Source: Actinomycetota bacterium (GTDB taxonomy: Bacteria; Actinomycetota; Geothermincolia; Fen-727; Anoxymicrobiaceae). Taken from it: a DNA stretch of 52,004 nucleotides. The translations under genes were made by a program, and so were the position numbers. Shown piece after piece: positions 3,960 through 51,354 of this stretch. Under the pieces are notes generated by a model that worked only from the letters and a program-made list of their open reading frames with translations, searched no databases and was not told where the DNA came from. Each line of letters opens with the position of its first letter. Within the stretch, counting starts at the first letter, position 1. The stretch is taken from the NCBI GenBank assembly GCA_003154635.1, contig PMDX01000093.1, positions 250 through 52,253 on the forward strand. The letters are read 5' to 3'.

Positions 3960-5873
3960 TCACAGCTTGACCGAAGGCTCGGATGCCCGGTAATCCATCT
4001 TGAGGTAGTAGACCCCGGAGTCGACCGTCTTCTTGACGTCCAGGAGCTTCTCGAAGACGTGGAGCATCGGCCTGTTCTCCACCACTACCTCGGCGGTGAA
4101 ACCCAGGAGACCCTGCCGCATCGCCTGCTGTATCAAGTACGATAGCAGCTCCGTGCCGATGCCCCTGTCCTGGAACTCGTCCTTCACCACGAATGCTATA
4201 TCGGCGGTGTGATTCTCCTGGTCGATCGTGTACTGTCCGATGCCGGCGATCACGTCTTTCTCCGTGTCCGGTATCACCGCAAGGATTACCAGTTCCTTGG
4301 TGAAGTCGATGACCACGTACTCCTGCAGGCGCTCGTGGGGCATGTCCTGGCGGCGCGAGATGAACCTTCGATAGAGGCTCTGGTCGGACAGGGAGTAGAA
4401 GAAGTCTTTCACGATGGGCTCGTCGCTTATCTTCACCGGACGGAAGAGGACCTCGACCCCGTCCTTGGTCGTCCTGTAAACCTCGAGCTCCTCGGGGTAC
4501 TCGCCCGCCTCGCCCGGTATGAACGCCTGGTCCGCGTAGATCAGGTTGAGCTTCTTCGCCTCCTCAATGAGCCACGGCCTGAACTTCGGGTGGGCGATCG
4601 ATGTAAGCTCCATCGCGCGCTCGCGGATGTTCTTGCCGTGGAGGTAAGCGATGCCGTACTCGGTCACCACGTAGTGGATGTCGCCCCGCGTGAGCGTGAC
4701 GCCGGCGCCCTCCAGGATGGAGGGCAATATCCTGGACACTTCGCCCTCGCCGGTCGTGGCCGTCGACGGAAGGGCGAGGATGGTCTTGCCGCCCGGCGAG
4801 AGCACCGCGCCTCGCATGAAGTCTGCCTGCCCCCCGACGCCGCTGTAGAAGACCTTGCCCAGGGACTCGGCCGTAGCCTGCCCGGTGAGGTCTATCTGCA
4901 GCGCCGCGTTTATCGCGACCATCTTGTTGTTCCGTGCGATGTTCAGAGGGTTGTTGGTGTAGTCGATAGGCCGGAACTCGATGCTCGGGTTGTCGTTGAT
5001 GAACTCGTAAATCGCCTCCGTGCCCATACAGAAAGTCGCGACCGTCTTGCCCCGGTTGACGATCTTCCATGAGTTGTCGACAACGCCTTTCTTGATGAGG
5101 TCCACGATGCCGTCGGAGAGCAGCTCGGTGTGCACGCCCAGGTGCTTCTTGTCCTCGAGGTTCGCGAGGATGGCGTTCGGGAGGCTGCCGTACCCGATCT
5201 GTATCGTGTCACCGTCTTCGACTATGCGCGCAACGTACTTGCCGATCTCGCGCGCCAGCTCGTCCGAGACCATCGGCTTGTACTCGAGGAGCGGCTCGTC
5301 GTGGTAGACGATAAAGTCAACATCCCTGACGTGTATGAAAGTGTCACCGTGGACTCGAGGCATGCGCGGGTTTACCTGGGTTATGACCACCTTGGCGTTC
5401 TCGACGGCGGCCTTCGAGATGTCTACACTGACCCCCAGGCTCATGAAACCGTTGTTGTCGGGCGGCGACGTCTGTATCAAAGCGACGTCGATCGGGATAT
5501 ACCTGCGGTAAAAGAGCTCGGGCACCTGCGACAGGAATATCGGAGTGTAGTCCGCGAGCCCCGCGTTGACCGCGTCCCTCGTGTTGTCGCCGATAAAGAA
5601 AGAATTGTGCCTGAACTGCCTCTTGAACTTGTCCTCGTCGTACGGCGCAACGCCAAGCGTCCACACTTGGAACACCTCGGTGTCGAAGAAAGCCTTGGGA
5701 TGCGCATCGATGTACTCGGCAAGAGCCGCTATGAGGTACTGCGGTTCCCCGCACCCGGTGCTCACGAAAAGGTGGTCTCCCCTGCGTATCGACTCGAATA
5801 CCTTCTCTTCGGTCGCGAATTTATCAGGGTAAGATTTCTTTATTTCTTCGAATATTGCTACGTAGCGCTCCAT
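3960..5873 (-). CDS. acetyl-CoA hydrolase/transferase family domain fused to a C-terminal Pat-type GNAT acyltransferase domain
   Basis: 637 aa. The N-terminal 440 aa resemble 4-hydroxybutyrate/acetyl-CoA transferases (VSTGCGEPQ, GGQADFMRGA). The C-terminal 190 aa carry SLYRRFISRR...IAFVVKDEFQDRGIGTELL...VVVENRPMLHVFEKL, as in the GNAT domain of protein lysine acetyltransferase Pat. Confidence 0.85.
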   Translation of the reverse strand: MERYVAIFEEIKKSYPDKFATEEKVFESIRRGDHLFVSTGCGEPQYLIAALAEYIDAHPKAFFDTEVFQVWTLGVAPYDEDKFKRQFRHNSFFIGDNTRDAVNAGLADYTPIFLSQVPELFYRRYIPIDVALIQTSPPDNNGFMSLGVSVDISKAAVENAKVVITQVNPRMPRVHGDTFIHVRDVDFIVYHDEPLLEYKPMVSDELAREIGKYVARIVEDGDTIQIGYGSLPNAILANLEDKKHLGVHTELLSDGIVDLIKKGVVDNSWKIVNRGKTVATFCMGTEAIYEFINDNPSIEFRPIDYTNNPLNIARNNKMVAINAALQIDLTGQATAESLGKVFYSGVGGQADFMRGAVLSPGGKTILALPSTATTGEGEVSRILPSILEGAGVTLTRGDIHYVVTEYGIAYLHGKNIRERAMELTSIAHPKFRPWLIEEAKKLNLIYADQAFIPGEAGEYPEELEVYRTTKDGVEVLFRPVKISDEPIVKDFFYSLSDQSLYRRFISRRQDMPHERLQEYVVIDFTKELVILAVIPDTEKDVIAGIGQYTIDQENHTADIAFVVKDEFQDRGIGTELLSYLIQQAMRQGLLGFTAEVVVENRPMLHVFEKLLDVKKTVDSGVYYLKMDYRASEPSVKL

Positions 5874-7420: not shown

Positions 7421-9103
7421 TTATCCGCCCATCATGGATTTCAGCTCGCGCTTGAGGATCTTGCCGACGCCGCTTGTCGGAAGCTCGTCCATGAACTCGA
7501 TTGTCTTGGGTACCTTGTAGGGCGCGACGTTTTCGCGCATGAACGAGAGGATCTTCTCCTTCTCCGCGTCGTCGGGTTTAATGCCGTTCTTGAGGACGAT
7601 CGCCGCTACGACGCGCTCGGAGCCGGGCCGGTCCGGGTCGGGTATTCCGAGGGTCGCGGCCAGGTCGATGTCGGGGTGCTTGGCGAGCACGTCGTCGAGC
7701 TCGCGCGTGAAGACCTTGAACCCGGAGATGTTGACCATGTCTTTAACGCGGTCGACGATGTAGAAGTAGCCGTCCTCATCCATCCTGGCGACGTCCCCGG
7801 TGAACATCCAGCCGTCTCGGACGGCGTTGTCGGTCTCCTCAGGCTGACCGAAGTAAGCTCTCATGAGCTGTGGTCCCCTTATCGCCATCTCGCCGGGCTC
7901 TCCCAACAGGGCGAGTTCCCCAGTCGCCGGGTCGACAAGCTTCAACTCTGTATTGGGAATCGGCATCCCTATGGACGACGGCTTCTTTTTGCCGTAACGC
8001 GGGTTACAGCACGTGACAGGGGATGTCTCGGTCATGCCGTACAGCTCGATGAAGTTGGGGCCGATAATGCTCTCTAGCTCGGCAATATTTTCCGCCGGGA
8101 ACGGTGCCGCCGCGCTGAGACAGAAGTCGAGGTTGCTCAGGTCGAGTGCCTTGAACTCGGGTTGCTTCATCAACTCGAAGAAGACCGTCGGAACGTTTAT
8201 CACGGTATTAGGCTTGTACTTCTTCAGTTGCTCGATGAGAAAGTGGGAATCCCTCGGGTCCGGAACGCATATCTGCGTCGCCCCGTTCGTGATCGAGAAG
8301 CCCCCCATAGCCAACCCGGCGATGTGGAAGAGTGGGAACGCGGACAGCGTCACGATGCCGGGCTGAAGGTCGAGGTATGTGAGCGTCTGGAGCCTGTCCG
8401 ACATGTAGCTCCGCTGCGTGAGCATCGCTCCCTTGGCGGGCCCCGTGGTGCCGCCCGTGTACATGAGGAAGATGAGGTCGTCCATGGTCCGCTTTACCTC
8501 GACGCGGTCGGGCGGCATGCCATTTAGCGCGTCCATGAAGCTGACGACCTTCTTGCCTGGCAGCGGTGTCACCTCGGCGGTCGGTATCTTCTTGAGGAGC
8601 TTCCCGAGAACCCGCTTGAAACCGGGGAGGAAATCGGCGATCCCCGTGACTATTACCGTGGAGAAATTCGTCTTGTCGGCCACCTCGACTATCTTCTCGA
8701 ACATGAGATCGATCGAGATGATCGCCTTGGCTCCGGAGTCGTTGATCTGGTGAACCATCTCGGGAGGCGTGAGCAACGGGCTGAGCCCCGTCGAGACGCA
8801 CCCGGCTTTCTGGACGGCGATGAACCCGATGTAATGCGCCGGCACGTTGGGCATGTGGAGGCCGACTACATCGTCCGGCTTGAGTCCACTCTTGATCAGG
8901 TATGCGGCCAACTGGTTGGACAGCGTGTCAATCTCGCGGAAGCTGATCTTCTTGTCCATGTAGATTATCGCGGGTCTGTCCGGGTACTTCCCGGCGATCT
9001 CGCGGAATTTCTCTGCGAAAGTCTTTTCCTCGAACTCAAGTTCGGCGGGGACATTCTTGTCGTAGTTCTTCAGCCAGGGCTTCTCTGAATAGATGTCGCT
9101 CAT
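7421..9103 (-). CDS. AMP-forming acyl-CoA ligase (long/medium-chain fatty acid--CoA ligase family)
   Basis: 560 aa with the YTGGTTGPAKGAMLT P-loop-like motif, GEPGEMAIRGPQLMRAY, FTGDVARMDEDGYFYIVDRVKD and C-terminal LPTSGVGKILKRELK. RBS AAAGGAG. Confidence 0.9.
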   Translation of the reverse strand: MSDIYSEKPWLKNYDKNVPAELEFEEKTFAEKFREIAGKYPDRPAIIYMDKKISFREIDTLSNQLAAYLIKSGLKPDDVVGLHMPNVPAHYIGFIAVQKAGCVSTGLSPLLTPPEMVHQINDSGAKAIISIDLMFEKIVEVADKTNFSTVIVTGIADFLPGFKRVLGKLLKKIPTAEVTPLPGKKVVSFMDALNGMPPDRVEVKRTMDDLIFLMYTGGTTGPAKGAMLTQRSYMSDRLQTLTYLDLQPGIVTLSAFPLFHIAGLAMGGFSITNGATQICVPDPRDSHFLIEQLKKYKPNTVINVPTVFFELMKQPEFKALDLSNLDFCLSAAAPFPAENIAELESIIGPNFIELYGMTETSPVTCCNPRYGKKKPSSIGMPIPNTELKLVDPATGELALLGEPGEMAIRGPQLMRAYFGQPEETDNAVRDGWMFTGDVARMDEDGYFYIVDRVKDMVNISGFKVFTRELDDVLAKHPDIDLAATLGIPDPDRPGSERVVAAIVLKNGIKPDDAEKEKILSFMRENVAPYKVPKTIEFMDELPTSGVGKILKRELKSMMGG

Positions 9104-10229: not shown

Positions 10230-10317
10230 GCAAACACTGTCCCTCCGGATACCTGATAATGACTCTGGCATGCATCGACCGGATAAGCACTATCCGACCG
10301 GGAGGAGGGAGGTTGCG

Positions 10318-11250
10318 ATGAGCGCGAAAATCGAAACGGTGGCAATAATCGGTGCGGGCATCATGGGCGCCGGGCTCGCGCAGTTGTTTGCCCAGAACGG
10401 TTACGCGGTGAAGCTTCATGACGTCAGCATTGATGCGCTCGACCGCGCGGTGACGAGAGCCGGAAACAACATGGCGATGCAGTCGGATTTCGGCTGGATA
10501 CCTGCGGAGGATATCGTGCCCGCGCTTGAGATGATGCAGTGCACGACCGACCTCGGGGAAGCTGTGAGCAAAGCGGACTTCATCATCGAGGCAGTGCCTG
10601 AGGTGCTCGAGCTCAAGAAAAACGTCTTTGCCCGGCTCGGTGGGCTGGCGCCGGAGCATACCGTGCTCGCCAGCAATACTTCCACGTTCGACGTCATGGC
10701 CGAGATGCCGGATGCGATAGCAGGCCGAGTCCTGATAACCCATTTCTTCAACCCGCCGCAGCTCGTGCCGCTCGTCGAGGTCGTGAGGGGCGAGAGGACC
10801 GCGGATGAGGTCATCGAGACGGCGATGGAGCTGATGCGCGCGGTGGGCAAGTATCCGCTAATGCTGAATCGCTACCTGCCTGGTTTTGTCGTGAACCGTA
10901 TACAGCTCGCGATCAACGGCATGGCGTACATGATCCTCAATGAGGGAATCCTCGAGCCGGAGGATATCGACAAAGCGATCGAAAACTCCATCAGCCTGCG
11001 CCTGGCCGTGGGAGGCCCGTTCGCTACGATGGACCTGGGCGGCCTCGATGTCATGGCCGCGTCCGCGCGCGCGATGGGGGTGGAGCCGCCGCCCGCGCTC
11101 GCCGAACGAGTCGAACGTGGAGACCTCGGGGTCAAGACCGGCCGCGGGTTCTATGACTATGCCGGCATTGATGAAGAAGAGATACTTGCCCGTCGCGACC
11201 GCCGTCTCATGCTCCTACTTGACGCCTACATGCGCGGCCTCAAGGACTGA
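10318..11250 (+). CDS. 3-hydroxyacyl-CoA dehydrogenase (NAD-binding)
   Basis: The ATG at 10318 follows GGAGGAGGGAGG. Rossmann motif VAIIGAGIMGAGLAQ, plus the PE...LK and FFNPP motifs of the HAD family. Confidence 0.85.
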   Translation: MSAKIETVAIIGAGIMGAGLAQLFAQNGYAVKLHDVSIDALDRAVTRAGNNMAMQSDFGWIPAEDIVPALEMMQCTTDLGEAVSKADFIIEAVPEVLELKKNVFARLGGLAPEHTVLASNTSTFDVMAEMPDAIAGRVLITHFFNPPQLVPLVEVVRGERTADEVIETAMELMRAVGKYPLMLNRYLPGFVVNRIQLAINGMAYMILNEGILEPEDIDKAIENSISLRLAVGGPFATMDLGGLDVMAASARAMGVEPPPALAERVERGDLGVKTGRGFYDYAGIDEEEILARRDRRLMLLLDAYMRGLKD

Positions 11251-11740: not shown

Positions 11741-12352
11741 ATGGTAGACATCGTATCGAGGACGCTTGAGGAGTGGACGGCGGGGCTCGACGACCGCGCG
11801 GCGAGGATTGCGGTCTTCGAACACATCCGGGACATCGAGTATGCGCTGGTGCCCGACCTCGTCGACTCGCGCCTCGGCCCGCGGGGAATTCTCGAACTGG
11901 GAAAGGGCTCCTGCTCGCCGAGACACTTCCTCCTTGGAAGGATGTTCGAGACGATGGACGTTCGAGTGCGCTACGTCACGTACACGCTCGATTGGAGCGA
12001 TCAGGGTATCGCGATGCCTGCTCGCCTGGCCGATCTCGCGGCCTCCCTGCCGCTGGAATGTCACCTCAACTGCGATGTCCTGATCGACGGCAGGTGGGTG
12101 ATGGTCGACGCCACCTGGGATCCTCCGCTCGAGCGCGCGGGATTTCCGGTCAATTTGAAATGGGATGGCTGCGGCGATACCCTCAATGCCGTGAAGCCTA
12201 TCGAAAAGATAGTGCACGATAGCGCGGGCGAGCGCGACGAGTACGCCAGAGAGATGGAGGCCGGCTACAGCGTGGCAGGGTCCGAGGCTTACACACGGTT
12301 CGTGAAAGAGTTCAACGCGTGGCTCGCCCGGGTGCGCGCCGGGGGAGCCTGA
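11741..12352 (+). CDS. transglutaminase-like cysteine peptidase superfamily protein
   Basis: GKGSCSPRHFLLGRMF (Cys nucleophile context), NCDVLIDGRWVMVDATWD (His/Asp region). ATG at 11741 after GAAAGGGAA; the ATG at 11735 is also possible. Confidence 0.7.
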   Translation: MVDIVSRTLEEWTAGLDDRAARIAVFEHIRDIEYALVPDLVDSRLGPRGILELGKGSCSPRHFLLGRMFETMDVRVRYVTYTLDWSDQGIAMPARLADLAASLPLECHLNCDVLIDGRWVMVDATWDPPLERAGFPVNLKWDGCGDTLNAVKPIEKIVHDSAGERDEYAREMEAGYSVAGSEAYTRFVKEFNAWLARVRAGGA

Positions 12353-12451
12353 CGGACACTCACGGACGCCCGTCCGCCCCCACGGGTTTTGCCGTACAGA
12401 AGGGATTATAATCTCACGTGCGTAGCGTTGCGAACGGGGATGGAGGTCGAC

Positions 12452-12955
12452 ATGTTATCCGTTGAAGGCGACGAGCTCAGAGAGTTGCTGGTGAAGTGCT
12501 GGATGACCCACGACGGCATGTGGTTCTACAACAGTTACCTCGAATACGGCATACGCGCCGCGAACAAGCTCAACAAGGCGGCGATCAAATCGCTTGCGCC
12601 CATAGAGCTTCACAGGGTGACCAGGGCGCTCGGGATCAAGCTAGAAGGAATCTCTTCGTTCGACGAGGTCCGTGCCGTCATCGACGGCGCGTTCTCGATA
12701 ATTGGAGGCGACTTCATGGGTTTCGATTATGACTTCCCCGAGGAGAACATCCTTCACTGGGTCATGCACAGGTGCTTTGCGCTCGAGGGCATGAAGATGA
12801 TAGGCGCTTACGACGATTACGAGTGCGGCGTGTTGTACCGAGTCCTGTGCTGGCTCGACTGCATCGGGATCGGCTACGAGGTCGAACCTCGTGTGGAGGG
12901 CTGCCTGATGAGGGAGTCCGGCGTATGCGAGGGGGTCGTCCGGTTCGCCATCTAG
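12452..12955 (+). CDS. uncharacterised Cys-motif protein (paralog of 3345..3905)
   Basis: The ATG at 12452 lies 5 nt after GGAGG. Sequence: MLSVEGDELRELLVKCWMTHDGMWFYNS...DYECGVLYRVLCWLDCIGIG...EGCLMRESGVCEGVVRF. Confidence 0.7.
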   Translation: MLSVEGDELRELLVKCWMTHDGMWFYNSYLEYGIRAANKLNKAAIKSLAPIELHRVTRALGIKLEGISSFDEVRAVIDGAFSIIGGDFMGFDYDFPEENILHWVMHRCFALEGMKMIGAYDDYECGVLYRVLCWLDCIGIGYEVEPRVEGCLMRESGVCEGVVRFAI

Positions 12956-12957
12956 TG

Positions 12958-14370
12958 CTAATCACTTGTCGCTTTGCTTTGAAGTGAGTGCAACCTCGTC
13001 AGCGCGATGATGGCGCTAGCGGTCTTTTCCGCCCTGTTGTAAGTCGGCACGCCCTCCGCCTGTATTCCGGCCATCTCCTGCGCGAACATCGCCGGCGCCG
13101 TCAGGCAGAGGAAAACGGGTTTCCCGTATTTGCGCCCGATCGAGGCGTATTCACGCGCCGGGAAAGTGATGCCGGAACCCATCCCGGACTGGAACACCGC
13201 AATCGCGCAATGAATGTCGTCCTGGCTCAGTGCAAGCTCGGTGGCCTTCAGATAGAGACGGGCGTCCGTCCAGGCGAAAGCGAACATGTCCAGCGGGTTC
13301 GCGGGCACGGCGTGCGGCGGCAGGAACTCGAGCATGGCATCGGCGACCTCGGGGTTCAGGTCGGGGAAGCGCACCCCGTTCTTCTCACACCGGTCGGTAA
13401 TTACTATCGCGGGGCCTGCCGTGTGTGTTGAGAGGAAGACGCCGTTGCCACCGAGGACGGCCCCCATCGAAAGCGCTTTTGCCGCGAGCACCATCTGTTC
13501 CACGCTGTCCGCCTGCAGTATTCCCGCCTGGGCGAATGCACCCCTGTAGACGACCTCGGAACTCGCTACGGAGCCCGTGTGGGACAGGGCCGTGCGGGTT
13601 GAGTGCTCGGTATGTCCGAGGTTACACGCGAGCAACGGCTTGAGCCCGGAAACGTCGGATGCTCGTTCGAAGAAATCGCGCCCGTCGTCCAGGCCTTCTA
13701 CGAACAGGCACGTGACTGACGTGTCTTCGTCCGCCGCGAGGTACTCGACCATGTCGGAGAATTCGATGTTGGCGCGGTCTCCGATGCTGATGAACTTTCC
13801 TATGCTGGCGAGCTCATCGGTAAGCTGCGAGATGATGCAAGTGCCCACGCCTCCGCTCTGGCTTACGACGGAAACGTTCCCGGCGGGGAGCATCCCAAGC
13901 GGAGCGGCAAAAGTCGCGTTGAGATGTGCGTGGGTGTTCAGGACGCCGATGCAGTTCGGCCCGATAAGCTTCATCCCCGCGGTAGCCGCGGCGTCCACCA
14001 GTTCTCGCTGCCTCAACCGGCCGCTCTCACCGGTCTCCCGAAAACCGCCCGCGAATATGACCCCGGCCTTCCCGCCTCTGCCGGCGGCCTGGCGGACCGC
14101 GTCTATGACCTTGTCGTCTGGTATTGCATAGACGTAGAGGTCGACCCCGTCCGGCAGTTCCGCCACGGACTTGTACGATCGGATGCCCTGTACCACTGAA
14201 TCCGCCCCGGGGTTGACCGGATAGACTTCACCTTTGAAGCCCGCCGACATAACGGCCTTCAGGGCCTGGAAGCCGAGCTTGAAAGGGTTGTCACTCGCCC
14301 CGACCACTGCAATGGACCGTGGGTAGAAGAGCGGCCTGTACGAATCGACCAGGCCTCGCTCGTCTTTCAA
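12958..14370 (-). CDS. ADP-forming acyl-CoA synthetase, alpha module only (CoA-binding + CoA-ligase domains; no ATP-grasp)
   Basis: PRSIAVVGASDNPFKLGF..., LIGPNCIGVLN, and the phosphohistidine-type motif ALSHTGSVAS. I prefer the TTG at 14370, which overlaps the upstream stop (TTGA). The track start GTG at 14421 is the alternative. Confidence 0.8.
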   Translation of the reverse strand: MKDERGLVDSYRPLFYPRSIAVVGASDNPFKLGFQALKAVMSAGFKGEVYPVNPGADSVVQGIRSYKSVAELPDGVDLYVYAIPDDKVIDAVRQAAGRGGKAGVIFAGGFRETGESGRLRQRELVDAAATAGMKLIGPNCIGVLNTHAHLNATFAAPLGMLPAGNVSVVSQSGGVGTCIISQLTDELASIGKFISIGDRANIEFSDMVEYLAADEDTSVTCLFVEGLDDGRDFFERASDVSGLKPLLACNLGHTEHSTRTALSHTGSVASSEVVYRGAFAQAGILQADSVEQMVLAAKALSMGAVLGGNGVFLSTHTAGPAIVITDRCEKNGVRFPDLNPEVADAMLEFLPPHAVPANPLDMFAFAWTDARLYLKATELALSQDDIHCAIAVFQSGMGSGITFPAREYASIGRKYGKPVFLCLTAPAMFAQEMAGIQAEGVPTYNRAEKTASAIIALTRLHSLQSKATSD

Positions 14371-15443
14371 TCCCAATTCGTCACCTCGATGTCGAGGGTA
14401 TCGTCGGGGGACATCTCCCACTCGACTTTGCTCTCCTTACCGTACGCCAGCTCGTAGAGGCCCTGGGTTATTCCCACGATCATGAGGTGGAGAGTGGCGT
14501 GGTGGACGCGCATCCGCACGCCCTGCCGCCCCATCGTCAGCTCGACGATGTTGCCCAGGCCCCTGAGCGCGAACAGGTTTCGCATGTGCGATTCGCTCCG
14601 TACCTCGCTCGACGAGTAGAATCCGCCGCGCACGAACCGCCGCTCGGCTTCCACCACCAGCTCGGGGATGATCTCTCCCTCCTTCTGCTCGAGATATTCA
14701 AAGAGTGGAGCTATCATCGCCGGCCCGAGCACGGCCATCCTCCTGCCATTGTGCTTTCCGGTTATTACCCCCCTGTGAAGGTCCCAACCGTACCTTGTGA
14801 GCATGGCCGGACCTCCGCATGACATGCATCTTCGAAGCTCGATATCACCCTCGCGCGGTATTTCTGGGGGCTCCCATCTCTGCGCCTTGTGTTTGATGGG
14901 GTCCGACAAAGTGTATGTCAGGAGGTGTGTCCCATCGGGAAGATCTTCGTGAACGATCTCTCCGTCCCGTTGTGTCAGCGTTCTGGTTGTCCCGGCGATG
15001 TTCCCGTCCATGAGGGGCACCGAGTATGGCTCGGAATAGTGGACTTTGACGAAATCGCCCTCGTCGAGCTTGAAACGCAGGTTGAATTCCGCGATTTGGC
15101 CGTACCCCATCACTCGCGCAAGTTGGACCACGACGCCGGCCGCCTGGTTCAGGTAGTCGGCCGCGCCGGGACCCGCGACGAGCTCCTTCAGCTCGCCGGG
15201 GACGAGCTCGTCCATGTAGTTGAACGTCTCGCGACACGCGGCCTCCGTTACCATCTGTTGAACGGGTTCGCCGCAAAGGTTTCCGATGCCGGCGAACAAC
15301 GGATCCAGGCTCTCGCACTCAAAGAACGAAACCCGGAAACGCCTCTGCCGTGTCTGGACGACAGCTCCGCTCGGCAACCAGGTATGTTCGGTCGTTATGT
15401 GCAGCGGTACTCCGCATTCCGGACAGAACGGTATCTCAACCAT
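14367..15443 (-). CDS. uncharacterised protein, internal duplication of a CxxC + V4R-like module (paralog A)
   Basis: 358 aa. The N-half starts FCPECGVP...W...G.VV; the C-half starts LRRCMSCGGP...W...GVI...GRRMAVLG...F..LE...GE.IPELVVEAERRF. The ATG directly abuts the upstream TAG, and GGAGGG lies inside the upstream gene's end. Confidence 0.8.
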   Translation of the reverse strand: MVEIPFCPECGVPLHITTEHTWLPSGAVVQTRQRRFRVSFFECESLDPLFAGIGNLCGEPVQQMVTEAACRETFNYMDELVPGELKELVAGPGAADYLNQAAGVVVQLARVMGYGQIAEFNLRFKLDEGDFVKVHYSEPYSVPLMDGNIAGTTRTLTQRDGEIVHEDLPDGTHLLTYTLSDPIKHKAQRWEPPEIPREGDIELRRCMSCGGPAMLTRYGWDLHRGVITGKHNGRRMAVLGPAMIAPLFEYLEQKEGEIIPELVVEAERRFVRGGFYSSSEVRSESHMRNLFALRGLGNIVELTMGRQGVRMRVHHATLHLMIVGITQGLYELAYGKESKVEWEMSPDDTLDIEVTNWD

Positions 15444-16559
15444 CTAGGCGCCCTCCCGGATCGCGGTCCTGCCATGCCCTCGGGACTCATCCCACGGGAC
15501 TACGGATACCTCCAGGACACCGTCTTCCGAGAGCTCCCATTCGACCTTGCTCTCGATACCGGAGTACAGTTCGTACATACCCTGGGCCATGCCTGTCGAC
15601 AGCAGCGGCGTGCTCGACCTCTCAAGTATCATGTGTACGCCCTTCCTGCCCATCGTTAGTTCTTTGATGCATCCTATGCCCCTGAGAGCCAGCTGGTCGC
15701 GCATGTCGGCGACGCTTCGCACCTCGGATACGGAGTAGCTGCCGCTCCGCACGAACCTGCGCTGCGCTTCGACGACTACTTCTGGAATCGATTCTCCGAG
15801 CTCCTTCTCGAGCTCCCTGAAGACAGGTTCGATTATGGGGGAACCAACCAGCGCCATGCGCCTGCCGGACGTCTTGCTGGTGATGACGCCTGTATCGGTG
15901 TCCCACTCGAACTCGGAGAGCTTCGCCGGACCTCCGCACAGCGTACACCTTCTTAGCTCGATTTCGTCGGGACCCGCCTTGTAAGGCATGATGCGCACCC
16001 GTTCCCTGGTTTCGGCTTGCCGCCGTGATGGGAAGACGTTGATGTCGATCGTATCCTTGTCTACTTCATCGTAGGTCACACATGCCTGCCGGCCCACGTA
16101 CGACTCGACGGTGCCCGCCACCGTGCCGGCGATGAGTGGCACGGAGCACGGGTTGCGATACCTCAGGGTTACAAGGTCGTCATCTCTCTGCTCGAACCTT
16201 ACGTCAAGCAACTCCGGCGATCCGTATCCCACGATACGGGCGAGACGGAACATCGTCTCGAGAACAAGATGGATGTCGATGCGGCCGTTCGCCAGTTGAT
16301 CCCTGACTTCATCGGACATGAGCTTGTTCATATAGGCCCGGGTCGACCTTCGGGCTGTGTTTACGACAAATGGTTCGACCGGTTCGCCGACTAGTTCGCT
16401 TATGCCGCAATAAAGGGGGTCGAAGCTTTCGGTCTCGATAAACACGAGCCGGTAGTAAGGGTAAGCGGTCTGAACGATCGACCCATCGTCAAGCCATGAA
16501 TGCTTGGAAGTGATGTCCGAAGGAACCCCGCATTGCTTGCAACGAGGTGTCTCAGGCAT
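15444..16559 (-). CDS. uncharacterised protein, internal duplication of a CxxC + V4R-like module (paralog B)
   Basis: It aligns along its full length with paralog A (RCKQCGVP..., LRRCTLCGGP..., GRRMALVG..., VVEAQRRFVRSG..., KVEWELSEDG). ATG at 16559 (MPETPRC); the GTG at 16571 is also possible. Confidence 0.8.
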   Translation of the reverse strand: MPETPRCKQCGVPSDITSKHSWLDDGSIVQTAYPYYRLVFIETESFDPLYCGISELVGEPVEPFVVNTARRSTRAYMNKLMSDEVRDQLANGRIDIHLVLETMFRLARIVGYGSPELLDVRFEQRDDDLVTLRYRNPCSVPLIAGTVAGTVESYVGRQACVTYDEVDKDTIDINVFPSRRQAETRERVRIMPYKAGPDEIELRRCTLCGGPAKLSEFEWDTDTGVITSKTSGRRMALVGSPIIEPVFRELEKELGESIPEVVVEAQRRFVRSGSYSVSEVRSVADMRDQLALRGIGCIKELTMGRKGVHMILERSSTPLLSTGMAQGMYELYSGIESKVEWELSEDGVLEVSVVPWDESRGHGRTAIREGA

Positions 16560-16642
16560 ATCCAACCTCACCGTGGTTCGCGGGCCGGTAACCCCGTTCT
16601 ATCCAGGCACCAATATTTATCGCAACAAGAGCCCCGTCATTT

Positions 16643-16918
16643 TTACCTGCGGCGGCTGTATCCTCCGCCACCGTACGAGGAGAGATCAAGGAAGAAGCCT
16701 ATGACTACAAAAACATATCCCCATCCGCTGATACCGAGGCCGGGTTGATACGCCAGCGCATAGAACATCGTCGTGAAGGGGAGGAAGAGCAGGCCGAGGA
16801 AAGGCCAGATGAACGTGTGGTGAAAAGCTATTGTGACCTGAGACGTAAAGATCCAGACCAGAAGCAGGGCGATGCGCGGCGCGAAAGAAGAGATCAATGC
16901 CAGAAGGCAGCAGCCCAT
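16643..16918 (-). CDS. small membrane protein (about 3 TM), unknown function
   Basis: The start MGCCLLALISS at 16918 follows GGGAGG. The C-terminus is the Gly-rich SSYGGGGYSRRR. The longer track ORF (to 17158) overlaps the upstream gene and is not supported. Confidence 0.55.
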   Translation of the reverse strand: MGCCLLALISSFAPRIALLLVWIFTSQVTIAFHHTFIWPFLGLLFLPFTTMFYALAYQPGLGISGWGYVFVVIGFFLDLSSYGGGGYSRRR

Positions 16919-16920
16919 GC

Positions 16921-17271
16921 CTAACCTCCCTGCTCGTCCGACCCAACGGGAACCCGTGTCAACATGTAGATGACTGATCCGACCCACGTCAGCAGAAATA
17001 GCAAGATGGCTGCAACCCACTGTGAGCCGTCCAGCTTGAGATAGCTTCCGAACCAGAATGTCGCATACAGGAAAAGTACGACCGCGACGATGGCAAGAGT
17101 GAGGCTCGCGGCACCCGGGAGCTTGACGAACATGAGTACCGGCGAGCTGAACGCGCATATCGAGGCAATTACCACGATGACGGAATAAGTCCAGAACCTC
17201 TTACCGTACTCGTCGTCTTCTCTTAGTTCCCGCCTGCGTATCCCGGCGGCCGTATCGTTACCAGATGCCAT
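16921..17271 (-). CDS. small membrane protein, PLD-N-terminal-like helical hairpin
   Basis: The ATG at 17271 (MASGNDT) lies 6 nt after GGAGGA. It has two to three TM helices. WVAAILLFLLTWVGSVIYMLT resembles the cardiolipin-synthase N-terminal domain type. Confidence 0.6.
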   Translation of the reverse strand: MASGNDTAAGIRRRELREDDEYGKRFWTYSVIVVIASICAFSSPVLMFVKLPGAASLTLAIVAVVLFLYATFWFGSYLKLDGSQWVAAILLFLLTWVGSVIYMLTRVPVGSDEQGG

Positions 17272-17442
17272 CCCAGTTCCTCCATACCGTGCCACATCAC
17301 ACCAACAGGATATTCCAAACCGTTGCGCTATTCAAAACGCGGGGACATTGAGCAAGCCATGAATGTCGGCTCGGATGGATGGGCCGGGTGCTTAGTCGTA
17401 TCATGAAACCAGAGAAACCGTGGTACAGACGGGGGGTGCACA

Positions 17443-18879
17443 ATGGAAGAGCTTGCTTTCATGGATGCTACCGCGCAGGCTGACCTTGTGCGGCGAGGCG
17501 AAGTCTCGGCACTCGATCTGGTGAGCGCGGCCGTTGAACGGATAGAACGGCTGAATCCCCAACTCAACGCGGTTGTAACACCGATGTTCGGCAAAGCATG
17601 TGAGACCGCGGCTCTGCCGGCGAGCGCACTGCCCGAAGGTCCTTTCACGGGGGTTCCGTTCCTCCTCAAGGACCTGATGGCGAGCTACGCCGGATTCCGC
17701 ATCACTTCGGGCTCCGCTTTCCTCGAGTACTACGTGGCGGACCATGATAGTGAACTGGTCGCAAGGCACAAGAGGGCCGGCCTTATCGTTGTGGGAAAGA
17801 CTAACACCTCGGAGTTCGGCATCCTTCCGACCGCCGAGCCGAAGTTCTTCGGCGCATGCCACAACCCCTGGGACGCGAGCAGGAGCACGGGTGGCTCGAG
17901 CGGTGGCTCGGCCGCGGCGGTGGCATCCGGCATGGTACCGATGGCACACGCAAACGACGCCGGCGGGTCGATCAGGATACCCGCGTCGTGTTGCGGTGTC
18001 TTCGGGCTGAAGCCGACACGCGCGAGAAACCCGATGGGTCCGGACATCGGCGATGCCTTTGGCGGGATGATCGTGGAGCATGCGGTAACCCGCTCTGTCC
18101 GCGATAGCGCGGCGCTGCTGGATGCTACGTGCGGGCCAACACCCGGCGATCCCTACTGGGCGCCGCCGAACGCGCGCCCGTACGTTCAGGAAGTGGGCGC
18201 GGACCCCGGCCGTCTGCGCATCGCGGTTGTCACCGGGGATCCGACGGGGGGCAAGGTCCACGACGACTGTATCAAAGCGGTGCGAGACGTCGCCTCTCTT
18301 TGCGACGGGTTGGGACACGAGATAATCGAGGATGTAGCGGTGAGATTCGACCTGCAGACCGTGATCCCTGCGTACACGGCCGTATATGCCGCCGGCAACG
18401 CCTGGGCTATCGACGGTGGGGGAATCATGTCGGGGCGGACCCCGTCACCGGAGAAGTTCGAGAAACTGACCTGGGCGCTCTACGAGATGGGTCACGGCAT
18501 AGACGCGCCGCAGTTCCTGCTCCACATGACCGCTCTCCAGCGAGCAGCGCGGGACATAGCCCGCTCGTTCGAGGACTATGACGTAGTCTTGACCCCCACG
18601 GTCACGGAGCCACCGCCGCCTCTAGGCACGTTCGACTCACCGCCGGACAACCCGCTGTACGGCCTGATGCGCGCCGCGTCGTACGTGCCGTTTACAACCG
18701 TAGCCAACTTTACGGGACTGCCGGCGATGTCGGTCCCGCTGCACTGGAACGCCGATGGTCTTCCCATCGGGACACAGTTCATCGGGAAGTCTGGTGACGA
18801 GGCGACCCTGTTTCGCCTTGCCGCCCAGCTCGAAGAGGCGCGCCCATGGGGCGGCCGGAGGCCCGCGATCCATGCGTAG
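17443..18879 (+). CDS. amidase (amidase-signature family)
   Basis: 478 aa. The signature is [33 protein letters not shown]. Confidence 0.9.
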
Positions 18880-29424: not shown

Positions 29425-29796
29425 ATGAACGAGAATATCGCGTACTGTGGGCTTGACTGCTCGCGATGCCCGGCGCTCATCGCAACGCGCGAAGGAGATA
29501 AGGAGGCGCTTGCCGCCGTAGCCGCGAGATGGAGCTCCGACACAGGTCGTGGAATAGTGGTGGAGTCCATCCTCTGCGACGGGTGCAAGTCAGGCAGCAC
29601 GCGCATCAACACCTTCTGCGCCGCCTGTGCGATCCGCGATTGCGCCTCCGGTCGCGGATACGAGACTTGCGCGCACTGCGACGAGTATCCGTGCGGCCGC
29701 CTGGAAAGCTTTCCCGCATTCCTGGCCGAGGGCAAGGCTTGCCTCGACCTGATCAGGCAACGCCTGTTGATGGATGGCCCACCTCGCCCTGAGTGA
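29425..29796 (+). CDS. DUF3795-type Cys-rich protein
   Basis: The N-terminal YCGLDCSRCPA and later CDGC...FCAACAIRDC...CAHCDEYPC are typical of DUF3795. Confidence 0.75.
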   Translation: MNENIAYCGLDCSRCPALIATREGDKEALAAVAARWSSDTGRGIVVESILCDGCKSGSTRINTFCAACAIRDCASGRGYETCAHCDEYPCGRLESFPAFLAEGKACLDLIRQRLLMDGPPRPE

Positions 29797-29906
29797 CAAA
29801 CGTCGCGCTTCAGGGGTTCCTTGGTGCCGTTGCCATCGTGTTACTATACGATTGTCTCGTGAAGCCCGAGCACTGCTGCCCGGAGCATGTATACGGAGGT
29901 GGAACA

Positions 29907-31730
29907 GTGTTGTCTATTCTTCATCTCGACAATATCACCGCAAGGAGGCTTCTGGCCTCGGCCATCGTCGCGCTTGCCATACTCGCGTGTCTCTCGCTGC
30001 CGGCCGCCGCCTCGCGGACTACCCCCGGCTTCGGCCCGGAGGTTCCCGTGGTGAGCGCGGGCGGTCCACGGTTCGCCCAGGTGACCGGCGAAAAGACCTG
30101 GTTCTTCGAGCGCTTCGATTCAGACGTCAAGGTAAACACCGACGGCTCGCTGACGGTGCGAGAGACCCAGGTTGCAAACTTCCAGGGTAATTTCACTTTC
30201 CTCAACAGGGACCTCACAGTGAGCAAAGCAAGCTTCAGTGAAGGCCGTAGCTACGGTAGTGTGCGCTACAGTGACATCAAGGTCTATGACCTCAAGGGCT
30301 CTCCTTACAAGAGCTTCAAGGTAGAGAACATCAATGGGGGCAAGCGCGTCCACATCTCTTTCTCGGCAAGCTTCCAGACGATGGGCTGGATAGTCGAGTA
30401 CAAGATGAAGGGCGCCGTCATCTATGCGAAAAACTACGACAGGCTCTATTACAACGCGGTTTCCCTCGATCGCGACGTAGCCATCGCTTCTTCGCGCATT
30501 ACCGTGCGGCTCCCCGCCGGAACGGACATGAGCAAAGTCAAATCGACGGAGTACCCGGACAAAGTATCGCCTCCGGGCCCGGCCCAGTCGGGACGCGACG
30601 GCACGACGCTCTGGTGGCAGGTCAAAGACATAAAACCTCAGACGACTTTCACGGTCGACGTCTCTTTCCCAAAGGGCATAGTCTCGGTGCCTCTCGTGTA
30701 CAGGGCCTGGTTCGGCATCCTCATGATAGCGATCGCCTTTCTCCTCGGTGCGGGCGCTCTCGTGTTGATGATCTTTCTCTGGTGGAGGAAAGGCCGCGAC
30801 GTCGCTGCTCCCGAGCTGGACGTAGTGCGGTATGAACCGCCGGAGGACATGCGCCCCGCGGAAGTTGGCGTGCTGGTGAAGGAGAAGCCTCTCATCGGGG
30901 ATATCACCGCGACCATCGTAGACCTGGCGATACGCCGTAAGCTAGTCATCAACGACCTCGGGGAGGAGGGAATCCTCAAGCACAGGAAGTTCGGTTTCCA
31001 GCGCTGGGACCCCGACATAGATGACACCGCGCCTTTCGAGAAAGAACTGCTGATCGGCCTTTTTGAAAACGGCCCTTCCGTCACGGAGGACGACCTCAAG
31101 GACAAGTTCTACAAGCACGTCAGCACGATCGATAAGAATCTCACGGAGCAGGTGATGTCCAAGGGCCTGTTCGACGGCGAACCGGCAAAGGTAAAGGCGA
31201 AGTACACCAGGCTCGCCATCGTCCTGCTCCTCCTGATGGGCGGGGTTTACCTGCTATGGCGCTGGTACGACCTTGGTTATTTCCTTGTGCTGGCAGGTGG
31301 GTTCGCCGTCGCCGCGATAGCCGTATTCATCGTGGGGCTCTACATGCCGAGGAGAACGGTGAAGGGCTCCGAGATGCTCTCTTACGTCAACGGCTTCAAG
31401 GAGTATATGTCGACCGCCGAGCGCGAAGAGATGAAGCTCATGACCGCCGACAACTTCCAGGCGAATCTCCCTTACGCGATGGTCCTCGGTGTCGCAAAAG
31501 AGTGGGCCGGCAAGTTCGCGGACATCTACAAGGAGCCGCCGGAGTGGTTCCGCGGCTATCCAGGGACGACGTTCAGCGCCGTATATCTAGCGGATTCGCT
31601 CTACATGATGCAGTCCAACGTGGGCACCACCCTTACCTCCCAGCCGTCCTCCAGCAGCGGCGGCGGCGGAGGGTTCGGCGGAGGTTTCTCAGGCGGAGGG
31701 TTCGGCGGCGGAGGCTCCTCGGCGGGATAG
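29907..31730 (+). CDS. DUF2207-type membrane protein
   Basis: The GTG at 29907 lies 6 nt after GGAGGTGG. Signal/TM segment, about 270-aa extracytoplasmic domain, TM cluster, and a Gly-rich tail SSSGGGGGFGGGFSGGGFGGGGSSAG characteristic of DUF2207. Confidence 0.8.
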   Translation: MLSILHLDNITARRLLASAIVALAILACLSLPAAASRTTPGFGPEVPVVSAGGPRFAQVTGEKTWFFERFDSDVKVNTDGSLTVRETQVANFQGNFTFLNRDLTVSKASFSEGRSYGSVRYSDIKVYDLKGSPYKSFKVENINGGKRVHISFSASFQTMGWIVEYKMKGAVIYAKNYDRLYYNAVSLDRDVAIASSRITVRLPAGTDMSKVKSTEYPDKVSPPGPAQSGRDGTTLWWQVKDIKPQTTFTVDVSFPKGIVSVPLVYRAWFGILMIAIAFLLGAGALVLMIFLWWRKGRDVAAPELDVVRYEPPEDMRPAEVGVLVKEKPLIGDITATIVDLAIRRKLVINDLGEEGILKHRKFGFQRWDPDIDDTAPFEKELLIGLFENGPSVTEDDLKDKFYKHVSTIDKNLTEQVMSKGLFDGEPAKVKAKYTRLAIVLLLLMGGVYLLWRWYDLGYFLVLAGGFAVAAIAVFIVGLYMPRRTVKGSEMLSYVNGFKEYMSTAEREEMKLMTADNFQANLPYAMVLGVAKEWAGKFADIYKEPPEWFRGYPGTTFSAVYLADSLYMMQSNVGTTLTSQPSSSSGGGGGFGGGFSGGGFGGGGSSAG

Positions 31731-31731
31731 G

Positions 31732-32298
31732 TCAGGTAACGGACGCGTCCGGCGCCTGCCTGGCTTCCGGGTCTTTCAGCTCGAAGTACTCGCGTGGGCC
31801 GAAGCTGTTCTTCATCATGCCCGCTACGACGTTGCCGGGGAAGCTCTCGCGCGCGTTGTCGTAGTACATCACCGAGCCGTTGTAGTACTTACGGGCTCCG
31901 GCGATCCTTGTCTCGGTTTGAGATAGTTGCGCTTGGAACTTGAGGAAGTCCTGGTTCGCCTTGAGGTCGGGATAGCTCTCCGCAACGGCCAGCAAACCGC
32001 CTATGGCGCCGGTCAGGCTGTCTTCAGCCGGGCCTTTTTCGCTGACGCTGCCCGCGTTCATTGCCCTGCCACGAGCCTCGGCGGCCGAGACCAGTACGCC
32101 CTTCTCGTGCGAGGCGTATCCCTTGACCACCTCGGACAGCTCGGGCACGAGGTCGTGTCGCCTGTTCAGCTCGACGTCGATCTGGTGCCATGCGTTGTCC
32201 GTCTTGTTGCGCAGGCGCACAAGCCTGTTGAACAGCACCAGGAGCGCGGCGAGCACCACGACCAGCACGGCTACGACAGCGATTATTGCTCCAGTCAT
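31732..32298 (-). CDS. lemA: LemA family protein
   Basis: The ATG at 32298 (MTGAIIAVVAV) follows GGGAAAGGAAAGAG. Single N-terminal TM, then FNRLVRLRNKTDNAWHQIDVELNRRHDLVP...ESYPDLKAN..F..LQ..L..TE..I..AR..YN. The track extension to 32619 is unsupported. Confidence 0.85.
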   Translation of the reverse strand: MTGAIIAVVAVLVVVLAALLVLFNRLVRLRNKTDNAWHQIDVELNRRHDLVPELSEVVKGYASHEKGVLVSAAEARGRAMNAGSVSEKGPAEDSLTGAIGGLLAVAESYPDLKANQDFLKFQAQLSQTETRIAGARKYYNGSVMYYDNARESFPGNVVAGMMKNSFGPREYFELKDPEARQAPDASVT

Positions 32299-32474
32299 CT
32301 CTTTCCTTTCCCAGGAGCGTTCGACAGCGACTCGCGCCAGGCGAGGGTCCGGCATCGGCGTTCCTTCTTTCCTGCGCTCAAGATACATTATGACGTAATT
32401 CGCGCGTACTGGCTCTCGTGGACGTGTGTCCCGCCGGGGCTTATGCTTGATATGGACCCGCGGGGAGGGCTGGC

Positions 32475-32747
32475 TTGGAAAGACTTGTGCTGGTGATAAA
32501 CGAGAATGACAACGTGGCTGTTGCGCTGCGAGAGATCGTCGCGGGAACGGGGGTCGAGGTGCCGGGCAGGGGCGTTCTGAAGGCAGTGGACGACATCCCG
32601 TACGGACACAAGATCGCACTCGAGGAAATACCCGAGGGCCACCCGGTCGTCAAGTACGGCGAGACGATCGGGTTTGCCTCCAGTCACGTCCAGGAAGGTG
32701 GATGGGTCCATACTCATAACATGGGACCGGTCGAGGTGAACAGTTGA
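32475..32747 (+). CDS. UxaA-family hydrolyase small subunit (SAF domain)
   Basis: 90 aa, NDNVAVALREI..G......L..DIPYGHKIAL..I..G..V.KYGE.IG.A...V..G.WVH.HN. TTG start after GGGGAGGG. Confidence 0.8.
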   Translation: MERLVLVINENDNVAVALREIVAGTGVEVPGRGVLKAVDDIPYGHKIALEEIPEGHPVVKYGETIGFASSHVQEGGWVHTHNMGPVEVNS

Positions 32748-49518: not shown

Positions 49519-49530
49519 GGGGAATGCCAT

Positions 49531-50685: not shown

Positions 50686-50706
50686 GTCAAGGGAGGTTAA
50701 CAGACA

Positions 50707-51354
50707 ATGGGACTGTACACTGATAAAAGGAAGACGACGACCACCCCCGACGGGTATGAGCTGCTAACGCATGAGTCCGGCCCGATCGAGTACAAGTTCA
50801 ACTGGCACATGGGCCCGTTCTGGAGCAAGTACCTTGCCGCCATGCGCGACGAGGGAAAGATCCTGGGAGTGAAATGCCCCAAGTGTGGCATCGTCTACAT
50901 ACCGCCACGAGCGGTGTGCGGCCAGTGTTTCGTGGAGCCTAACGAGTGGGTAGAAGTCGGCCCCGAGGGGCTGCTCAAGGGCTTTACCGTCGTGAGGTTC
51001 CCTTACATCGACCCCAACACCGGACACCTCATGAAGGTGCCGTTCACCGCTGTCTGGATAACTCTGGACGGTGCCGACACCCGCATGATGCACTTCTGCA
51101 ATGAGTTGGACGAGCACAAGATGCGGGTCGGAATGCCCATGAAGGCAGTATTCGCCAAGAAGCCCCGCCCGACATCCATCCACGCGGTGGAACGCTTCGA
51201 CATCATCCCCGGAGGAAAGGTCGTTGAGGAGGTACACCCGCCGCGGATGGACGTTCCCATAAAGATGGAGCTTCCTACCAAGGCGACCGCAAAGCGCAAG
51301 GGTGCCGGCGCCAAGAAGGCTACCAAGAAAAAGGTAGCCGCCAAGAAAAAATAA
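50707..51354 (+). CDS. Zn-ribbon/OB-fold protein (DUF35 family) with Lys/Ala-rich C-terminal tail
   Basis: CPKCGIVYIPPRAVCGQCF plus an OB segment. The last ~26 aa are PTKATAKRKGAGAKKATKKKVAAKKK. RBS AGGGAGG. Confidence 0.85.
   Translation: MGLYTDKRKTTTTPDGYELLTHESGPIEYKFNWHMGPFWSKYLAAMRDEGKILGVKCPKCGIVYIPPRAVCGQCFVEPNEWVEVGPEGLLKGFTVVRFPYIDPNTGHLMKVPFTAVWITLDGADTRMMHFCNELDEHKMRVGMPMKAVFAKKPRPTSIHAVERFDIIPGGKVVEEVHPPRMDVPIKMELPTKATAKRKGAGAKKATKKKVAAKKK

Follow-up and report, generated by a model that had tools for sequence, protein, structure and literature searches.

Within one alpha/beta fold class, H-NOX proteins bind heme, Bet3 binds palmitate and the MopR and PoxR sensor domains bind phenols, and H-NOX genes often adjoin the gene of the enzyme that they regulate. 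V4R domains, for which the binding of hydrophobic ligands and signalling in cis or in trans have been suggested, are described as homologous to Bet3, the two being marked by GxxxG pairs in their packing helices, and a descent of Bet3 from V4R has been put forward (Podar et al., 2008, PMC2253512). In MsvR, cysteines of the V4R domain mediate redox-sensitive behaviour (PMC3729527). Here we describe a locus within a 52,004-nucleotide stretch of DNA from an Actinomycetota bacterium of the Anoxymicrobiaceae (contig PMDX01000093.1), the whole of which we call the window. Two adjacent genes of this locus, A and B, encode paralogous proteins that each appear to consist of two V4R-like modules headed by a cysteine knuckle, and they directly precede a gene for an alpha-type protein of the ADP-forming acyl-CoA synthetases (ACDs). 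We propose that A and B may be metal-stapled, twin-lobed, ligand-binding accessory proteins coupled to the ACD alpha protein, a reading that we offer tentatively, judging its chance as a whole to be somewhat below even.

Duplicated modules and cysteine knuckles of A and B

An original prediction, made from the DNA sequence without database searches, had held that A and B align along their full length and that each consists of a single module in tandem duplicate, giving four modules in total. End-to-end alignment of the two proteins gives 44% identity (E 2e-103), and the duplication is recovered both by BLASTP of the N-terminal against the C-terminal half (E 2e-9 for A, 3e-5 for B) and by hhalign comparison of profiles built from 16 N-modules and 16 C-modules (97.9% probability, E 3.2e-13, 158 columns). 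Paralogy and internal duplication are far beyond chance and are confirmed. The four knuckle motifs quoted in that prediction, one CxxC per module, are likewise all present in the translations (Table 1), and both knuckles of A and of B carry the CxxCG-P signature. Conservation was assessed over 108 near-full-length relatives, 101 of which are N-terminally complete. The cysteines of the C-module knuckle are invariant in 108 of 108, and the pattern of four cysteines (C7, C10, C206 and C209 in the numbering of B) recurs in all 101 of the complete sequences. Besides these four, no cysteine or histidine is conserved among the 108 relatives, and no histidine reaches 40% conservation.

A single CxxC is insufficient for metal binding alone, and CPxCG and CxxCG motifs are the classical knuckle signature of rubredoxin and the zinc ribbons. 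As there are four invariant cysteines and no other conserved cysteine or histidine, the simplest plausible reading is that the two knuckles of each protein form one Cys4 site; hook-like sites between partner chains are the alternative. Zinc and iron cannot be told apart from sequence at such a predicted site, and structural zinc would be the most likely occupant. In structural models the knuckle and the strands that follow it have a predicted local distance difference test score (pLDDT) of 89-94 within full-length B and of only 53-62 in an isolated C-module, a drop which suggests that this part of a module is packed onto its neighbour.

The AlphaFold2 model of full-length B (m9114ecbde0fd), built from 19 homologs, has a pLDDT of 87.7 and a predicted template modelling score (pTM) of 0.87. 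In this model both modules have the same order of elements, namely knuckle, three-stranded meander, three to four helices and an alpha-beta-beta-alpha-beta-beta unit. A Foldseek search of the PDB with the model returned a single fold class, comprising H-NOX, TRAPP TPC6/Bet3, the phenol-sensor domain of MopR/PoxR and Bacillus subtilis YslB, each with a probability of 1.0 and with 135-181 residues covered, corresponding to one module. The best E-value (5e-4) belongs to H-NOX domains and the longest alignments (181-185 columns) to the MopR/PoxR phenol-sensing domains. The TM-scores are modest (0.38-0.55, target-normalised, with a root-mean-square deviation of ~5 A), and for this reason the modelled resemblance of A and B to V4R, H-NOX and Bet3 is at the level of fold class, or superfamily, only. 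The model of an isolated C-module is of low confidence (pLDDT 69.5); its Foldseek matches, again PoxR, YslB, TPC6/Bet3 and H-NOX together with BcsD, have weak scores and serve as a consistency check only. B contains three GxxxG pairs (G54-G58, G145-G149 and G324-G328), with G58 and G324 at least 92% conserved; the presumably equivalent helix of the C-module has no such pair.

The suggestion in the original prediction that the modules are V4R-like and preceded by half a zinc knuckle thus stands for the fold and for the one CxxC before each module, and fails for the V4R sequence family itself. In hmmscan searches of Pfam-A at E <= 1, A and B match none of the V4R (PF02830), HNOB (PF07700) and TRAPP Bet3 (PF04051) models and return only sub-threshold zinc-finger noise. 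No model in NCBIfam, PADLOC or PHROGs matches either protein, in line with the earlier statement that no family could be named for them. A profile search of PDB sequences with the A/B family gave only insignificant matches of eL37 zinc ribbons to the C-module knuckle (E 0.19-2), noise that explains why one Joint Genome Institute annotation reads 'ribosomal protein L37E'. Three identities were accordingly rejected: a named family, on the blank Pfam, NCBIfam, PADLOC and PHROGs results; a heme-binding H-NOX, on the family alignment, in which no conserved histidine and no conserved YxSxR-type motif is seen; and a defence-system or phage protein, on the blank PADLOC and PHROGs results. From the alignments and the model, A and B appear to represent a family that is new and so far without annotation, and whose fold class is known; its putative new architecture would unite V4R-like domains in tandem and a Cys4 site in split form.

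A word-indexed search yielded 20 clusters of this family, and an exhaustive profile search, with clustering at 50% identity, raised the number to 521 at E <= 1e-3, of which 196 have E <= 1e-30; among the 150 best matches listed, full-length members are mostly of ~345-380 amino acids. In a species-representative genome collection there are 39 loci, all in metagenome-assembled genomes (MAGs) of Actinomycetota, several of which are named Geothermincolia, and the family seems confined to a single deep-branching class of this phylum. The MAGs include Ca. Geothermincola, Ca. Solincola, Ca. Anoxymicrobiaceae, SURF_21 and one (FI88) labelled Acidimicrobium ferrooxidans; a scan of the collection found no family member in Desulfobacterota. 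Genomes carry several copies (at least five in FI88, at least nine in CAKZMC01 and five in JAFGDU01). Tandem paralog pairs are common and occur across several subclades (L004, L011, L019, L021, L028, L034, L037 and L047; related loci are given here by L numbers), and CAKZMC01 has four paralogs in tandem on one strand (L048, 5343-10490). A literature search found nothing on the Anoxymicrobiaceae, and the titles of the papers listed for Geothermincolia do not concern the A/B family.

Linkage to an ACD alpha gene and the apparently missing beta subunit

The gene that follows B was described in the original prediction as having CoA-binding and CoA-ligase domains and an SHTGS phosphohistidine motif, a description that holds in full. 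Its product matches CoA_binding_2 (PF13380, 3e-22), Succ_CoA_lig (PF13607, 5e-39) and Ligase_CoA_2 (PF19045, 1e-4), carries the motif (Table 1) and has full-length relatives in the PDB (2csu, E 6e-91; 4xyl, E 3e-74). It is by sequence a member of the ACD alpha-type family. Its score against TIGR02717 is 359 bits, below the cut-off of 567 bits at which that equivalog model assigns an acetate--CoA ligase alpha subunit. The protein falls in a large alpha-only clade of more than 100 clusters, ~470 amino acids in length and named only 'CoA-binding protein', that includes Desulfobacterota; one alpha fragment nearly identical to it bears the annotation Ca. Anoxymicrobiaceae.

The coupling of the three genes stop to start was also foreseen, and stands for the A/B junction, where the TAG of A abuts the ATG of B directly, and for the existence of an overlap between B and alpha. 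The 4-nucleotide TTGA overlap proposed for the latter, which corresponds to a start at TTG 14370, gives way to TTG 14376 as the likelier start, with an overlap of 10 nucleotides. This start is preferred because a Shine-Dalgarno-like GAGGTG lies 5 nucleotides 5' of it, because a ~100% identical gene call of 472 amino acids in the protein collection (P0170) starts at the same codon, and because an identical 10-nucleotide overlap between a family gene and alpha is found on contig L060; TTG 14370 is the remaining alternative.

The same arrangement recurs in other genomes. In an alpha-side survey, 16 informative contexts were grouped by identity to the window alpha. At identities of at least 68%, seven of eight alphas have one to three family genes directly upstream, at a spacing of -10 to about +30 nucleotides: the window itself, L060 (79%), L061/L062 (75%, three family genes), L015 (71%), L018 (71%), L064 (70%) and L079 (68%, two family genes). 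The eighth, P0172 (L053-55/L065, 71%), is unlinked. At 64% identity or below, none of eight alphas (L056, L066, L068, L069, L071, L072, L074 and L058) has a family gene directly upstream. The closest relatives of A stand directly before an ACD alpha in L015, L018, L061 and L079, the linked family genes form one subclade in the neighbour-joining tree, and flanking genes differ among the linked loci. Apart from the near-identical contigs L061/L062, the linked loci share only 40-59% identity in the A/B-type genes and 68-79% in alpha. The contrast between the two identity ranges, and the fact that most family loci are without an ACD nearby, indicate that the linkage, which is conserved and probably functional, is specific to one ortholog group rather than general to either family. 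Recurrence of the pair with beta-less alpha genes had been put forward as a check on the original prediction; one to three family genes do recur with them, in this one ortholog group only.

Linked and unlinked alphas differ at two diagnostic positions only (H258 and T327), with no group-specific indels. H258 lies eight residues before the phosphohistidine (TEH-STRTALSH-TGS) and is invariant in 6/6 linked alphas, whereas N, S or A occupies this position in 9/9 unlinked alphas compared. With SHTGS present, no subgroup indels and two diagnostic substitutions, the linked alphas look standard from their sequences. Near the unlinked P0172 there is a LemA and DUF2207 membrane-protein pair (L054, 9971-12318) that is also found in the window (29793-32619), hinting at a wider shared gene order.

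The absence from the window of an ATP-grasp gene, which would encode the beta part of an ACD, was noted at the outset and is upheld both by tblastn with the ATP-grasp parts of the fused ACDs P0273 and P0279 and by Pfam scans of ~34 open reading frames (ORFs), nearly all of the longest included. The same tblastn searches, run on L001-L052 and L063-L079 (69 of the 79 related loci), gave no ATP-grasp_5-like sequence. For ACDs it is usual that the alpha and beta genes are unlinked, as in Pyrococcus furiosus, where five alphas share two betas (PMC3942289), so the absence of ATP-grasp near the alpha gene proves little. Published gene counts for related genomes bear on the same point. For four RBG-13-55-18 genomes, SURF_21 included, a KEGG-based table gives acdA (K01905) copy numbers of 8, 10, 10 and 13, and it lists acdB (K22224) for none of the 25 related genomes (Merino et al., 2020, PMC7325909 Table S10); SURF_21 also carries the A/B family (L028). 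The clade RBG-13-55-18 genomes, again including SURF_21, have 5-22 acetyl-CoA C-acetyltransferase genes (PMC7325909 Table S10). The related clades are described as anaerobes with the Wood-Ljungdahl pathway, pta and ack are absent in clades UBA1414, RBG-13-55-18 and UBA9087, and several genomes have an acylphosphatase; the step from acetyl-CoA to acetyl-phosphate is called unclear in that study, which passes over the missing beta subunit without comment (Merino et al., 2020, PMC7325909). Absence of acdB by KEGG Orthology assignment is no proof in MAGs, and the acdA counts may include fused forms, for which reasons the orphan status of the alpha protein is neither established nor refuted.

Table 1. 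Features of the A/B-ACD alpha locus and its immediate neighbours (positions in the window).
Feature	Position	Strand	Remarks
DUF6125 gene	12389..12955	+	Pfam DUF6125, 30 bits
ACD alpha-type protein, alpha-only	12958..14376	-	472 amino acids from TTG 14376
SHTGS phosphohistidine-loop motif	13570..13584	-	alpha residues 265-269
Protein B	14367..15443	-	358 amino acids; N-module 14868-15443, C-module 14370-14867
Knuckle CMSCGGP	14808..14828	-	B residues 206-212
Knuckle CPECGVP	15405..15425	-	B residues 7-13
Protein A	15444..16559	-	371 amino acids; N-module 15975-16559, C-module 15447-15974
Knuckle CTLCGGP	15927..15947	-	A residues 205-211
Knuckle CKQCGVP	16521..16541	-	A residues 7-13
Small membrane protein 2	16643..16918	-	91 amino acids
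Small membrane protein 1	16921..17271	-	~116 amino acids from ATG; ORF reaches GTG at 17295

On the minus strand the locus comprises five genes in the order membrane protein 1, membrane protein 2, A, B and ACD alpha. The two small membrane protein genes, whose presence upstream had also been pointed out, are coupled to each other, the ATG of the second lying 2 nucleotides past the stop of the first with GGGAGG just 5' of it; a gap of ~83 nucleotides separates them from A. Both are kept in L060 and L013, with homologs of membrane protein 1 in the same position (72% and 57% identity, respectively) and homologs of membrane protein 2 at 68% and 63%. Membrane protein 1 has no confident Pfam match and membrane protein 2 no PADLOC match. 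The convergent DUF6125 gene ends 2 nucleotides from the stop of ACD alpha and is placed and oriented alike in L060, L013 and L063; it counts as a conserved neighbour rather than as an established part of the unit. Promoter and terminator scans of 12300-17600 gave counts at chance level and were uninformative.

Elsewhere, one or two family genes of a different subclade share a conserved block with a GGR-like flavoprotein, a B12-radical-SAM enzyme, MazG, a CARDB-like protein and a two-component system, and this block is found whole or in part in ~9-11 loci. In L011 (4998-14352) MazG is on the opposite strand, the CARDB-like protein has 345 amino acids, and a HisKA_3 kinase and a GerE response regulator make up the two-component system; similar blocks occur in L025, L031, L032, L033, L040, L042, L021, L034, L028 and L038. 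Several loci of this type have a distant family member (25% identity, 374 amino acids, no Pfam match) a few kilobases away. A second context is formed by GluRS and an ABC transporter (~4 genomes) and a third by PALP enzymes (2 genomes). Clustering of neighbours over the loci revealed no universal partner, and one large neighbour cluster proved to be spurious antisense ORFs over family genes. The DNA is ~60% GC, and antisense ORFs of 150-300 amino acids overlap real genes between 10000 and 20000 of the window, for example at 14889-15659 (+) and 13577-14131 (+), and in many other loci.

The window holds further genes of acyl-CoA metabolism. A 637-amino-acid fusion (3960-5873, minus strand) joins acetyl-CoA hydrolase/transferase domains (PF02550, PF13336) to a C-terminal GNAT acetyltransferase; it is like the Pat-type protein acetyltransferases, but has a CoA-transferase-like domain instead of an ACD-like N-terminal one. 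At 48382-51354 (plus strand) two thiolase-like genes of the SCP-x type (Thiolase_C_1) precede the gene of a DUF35-type protein, which combines an OB fold and a rubredoxin-like zinc ribbon (zf-ChsH2). An AMP-binding ligase lies at 7421-9103 and a 3-hydroxyacyl-CoA dehydrogenase at 10270-11250.

Possible roles of A and B beside the ACD alpha protein

According to the reading that we favour, the two knuckles of one chain, or those of two partner chains in the manner of a Rad50-type zinc hook, would ligate one metal ion, likely a structural zinc, and this metal would staple two lobes into a pseudo-dimer. Each lobe would offer a hydrophobic ligand cavity typical of the fold class. Made in stoichiometric amounts with the ACD alpha protein through coupled translation, A and B could serve as a ligand-binding accessory of its CoA-thioester/acyl-phosphate site, whether by setting specificity, by presenting the substrate or as an allosteric sensor. 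The nucleotide site would not be contributed by A and B; it would come from an unlinked ATP-grasp protein, or alpha would work without a nucleotide. Other members of the family probably do an analogous job for other partners.

Several observations weigh against this reading. The structural matches to the fold class have the modest TM-scores given above, and the Pfam models of its known families are unmatched. Most family members (~40 loci) have no ACD gene nearby, and the other conserved contexts, of B12-radical-SAM with GGR-like flavoprotein, GluRS and PALP, involve different neighbours. One locus (L013, from FI88) keeps the membrane genes, the family pair and DUF6125, with alpha missing between the pair and DUF6125; in it the first gene of the pair is split into ORFs of 149 and 215 amino acids (L013 7552-8648, the same as L016 6784-7856), through a frameshift or an assembly error. 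The linked loci may, moreover, all stem from close relatives, so that the linkage may in part be inherited gene order, and the interaction, the ligand and the metal of A and B are all predicted, from sequence and from the model.

Taken further, inherited gene order becomes an explanation of its own, in which a few closely related MAGs have simply retained an adjacency that means nothing for function. It would fit with the confinement of the linked loci to one subclade and one alpha group, and with L013 and P0172, which show either gene without the other. We nevertheless hold it to be improbable, since the identities between linked loci are low outside L061/L062, the flanks differ, the spacing stays within -10 to +30 nucleotides and the upstream copy number has changed while the junction with alpha was kept. 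The same junction bears on the idea that A and B stand free and sense small molecules or redox state, working in trans on kinases or cyclases like stand-alone H-NOX proteins, with the adjacency to alpha a matter of co-regulation and no complex formed. The many unrelated contexts and the 5 to at least 9 family copies per genome would suit such sensors, as would the signalling ascribed to V4R domains (PMC2253512), the redox-sensitive cysteines of MsvR (PMC3729527) and the histidine kinases or response regulators that lie within 3.5 kilobases in eight family loci. Histidine kinases are abundant, however, so their proximity is weak evidence, and overlapping or abutting stop and start codons kept over seven loci with differing flanks are more typical of subunits made in a fixed ratio; free sensors seem to us rather unlikely, although a good deal less so than mere inherited order. 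Some of the same precedents could point to chemistry at the knuckles, with the four cysteines binding iron in a rubredoxin-like Fe(Cys)4 site or acting as a thiol switch, and A and B engaged in electron transfer or redox gating rather than in carrying ligands. The knuckle signature is shared by rubredoxin, the related clades are anaerobes with the Wood-Ljungdahl pathway (PMC7325909), and MsvR provides a V4R protein with redox-active cysteines. Yet the signature is equally that of zinc ribbons, no redox enzyme is consistently adjacent to family genes, and this possibility, to which we give little credence, offers no role for the large conserved alpha/beta lobes.

The original prediction had gone furthest in proposing that the pair may replace the missing beta module, which would make the locus a new ACD-type enzyme with another phosphoryl acceptor or one that stops at acyl-phosphate or acid. 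In its favour are the conserved linkage to one alpha ortholog group (7/8), the histidine at -8 from the phosphohistidine that is diagnostic of linked alphas, the lack of ATP-grasp_5-like sequence in the window and the 69 related loci, and the related genomes with 8-13 acdA, no acdB, no pta or ack and an acylphosphatase (PMC7325909 Table S10). In that form the proposal is unsupported. A and B are unlikely to substitute for beta because their predicted fold is not the nucleotide-binding ATP-grasp, because they have no conserved histidine for a phosphoryl relay, because the number of family genes before alpha varies from one to three, and because the >100 clusters of alpha-only homologs extend to Desulfobacterota, where no family member was found. 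Most family members are without an ACD alpha nearby and most alpha-only homologs without a family gene nearby, L013 keeps the pair without alpha, Thermococcales as a rule have unlinked genes and shared betas (PMC3942289), and the acdB counts carry the limits stated above. We regard replacement of beta as very improbable. A broader variant, for which we see only a slim chance, would make the V4R-like twin-lobe proteins true partners of ACD alpha in an ATP-grasp-free enzyme of the ACD superfamily, for example one acting on acyl-CoA and acyl-phosphate or activating acids, with the substrate held by the lobes; it would draw on the expansion of alpha-only ACD genes (8-13 per genome), the co-expansion of V4R-like proteins and the lack of annotated acdB, pta and ack. 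If true, it would also account for acyl-CoA processing in these organisms.

Whichever role applies, a family that lacked annotation and numbers ~520 clusters (at 50% identity) can now be given a fold, a domain plan and a place in taxonomy. What V4R domains do is poorly understood, and a stand-alone, duplicated, probably metal-stapled version with translational coupling to a defined enzyme provides a tractable system. The locus also touches on the physiology of uncultured Actinomycetota that have many acdA-type genes and no annotated acdB, pta or ack.

Comparison with known systems

Among ACDs, the closest counterparts of the window alpha are Pyrococcus horikoshii PH0766 (2csu) and the Ca. Korarchaeum ACD alpha (4xyl), which share its set of domains and its SHTGS loop. 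The window alpha differs from both in scoring below the TIGR02717 cut-off and in being preceded by V4R-like genes. For the predicted metal site the nearest parallels are split Cys4 sites, namely the knuckle pairs of rubredoxin and zinc ribbons and the zinc hook of Rad50, in which likewise each unit supplies one CxxC and four cysteines bind one metal; in A and B, by contrast, the knuckles are ~200 residues apart and head two duplicated domains.

With regard to the fold, H-NOX proteins are stand-alone sensors and give the best Foldseek E-values to B. A and B differ from them in having no conserved heme-ligating histidine, and since none is conserved among the 108 family members, heme binding by A and B is unlikely. 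The TRAPP subunits Bet3 and TPC6 (Trs33) have the same fold as the modelled B module, with a TM-score of up to 0.55 on the target, and Bet3-family paralogs work as heterodimers, as their PDB titles state, a parallel to the tandem paralog pairs of the A/B family. Unlike A and B, TRAPP subunits are components of a eukaryotic tethering complex, are single-domain proteins of ~150-190 amino acids and have no cysteine knuckles. V4R proteins (PF02830/COG1719), which include MJ1460, BchJ and the sensor domains of XylR, DmpR, MopR and PoxR, share with A and B the alpha/beta fold class and perhaps the GxxxG helix motifs, and like them are stand-alone or accessory proteins without a catalytic motif. The zinc site of MopR lies inside its domain and is built differently from the knuckles of A and B. 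What sets A and B apart from the V4R proteins is the fusion of two tandem modules, each preceded by a CxxCG-P knuckle, with no DNA-binding or AAA+ output domain attached.

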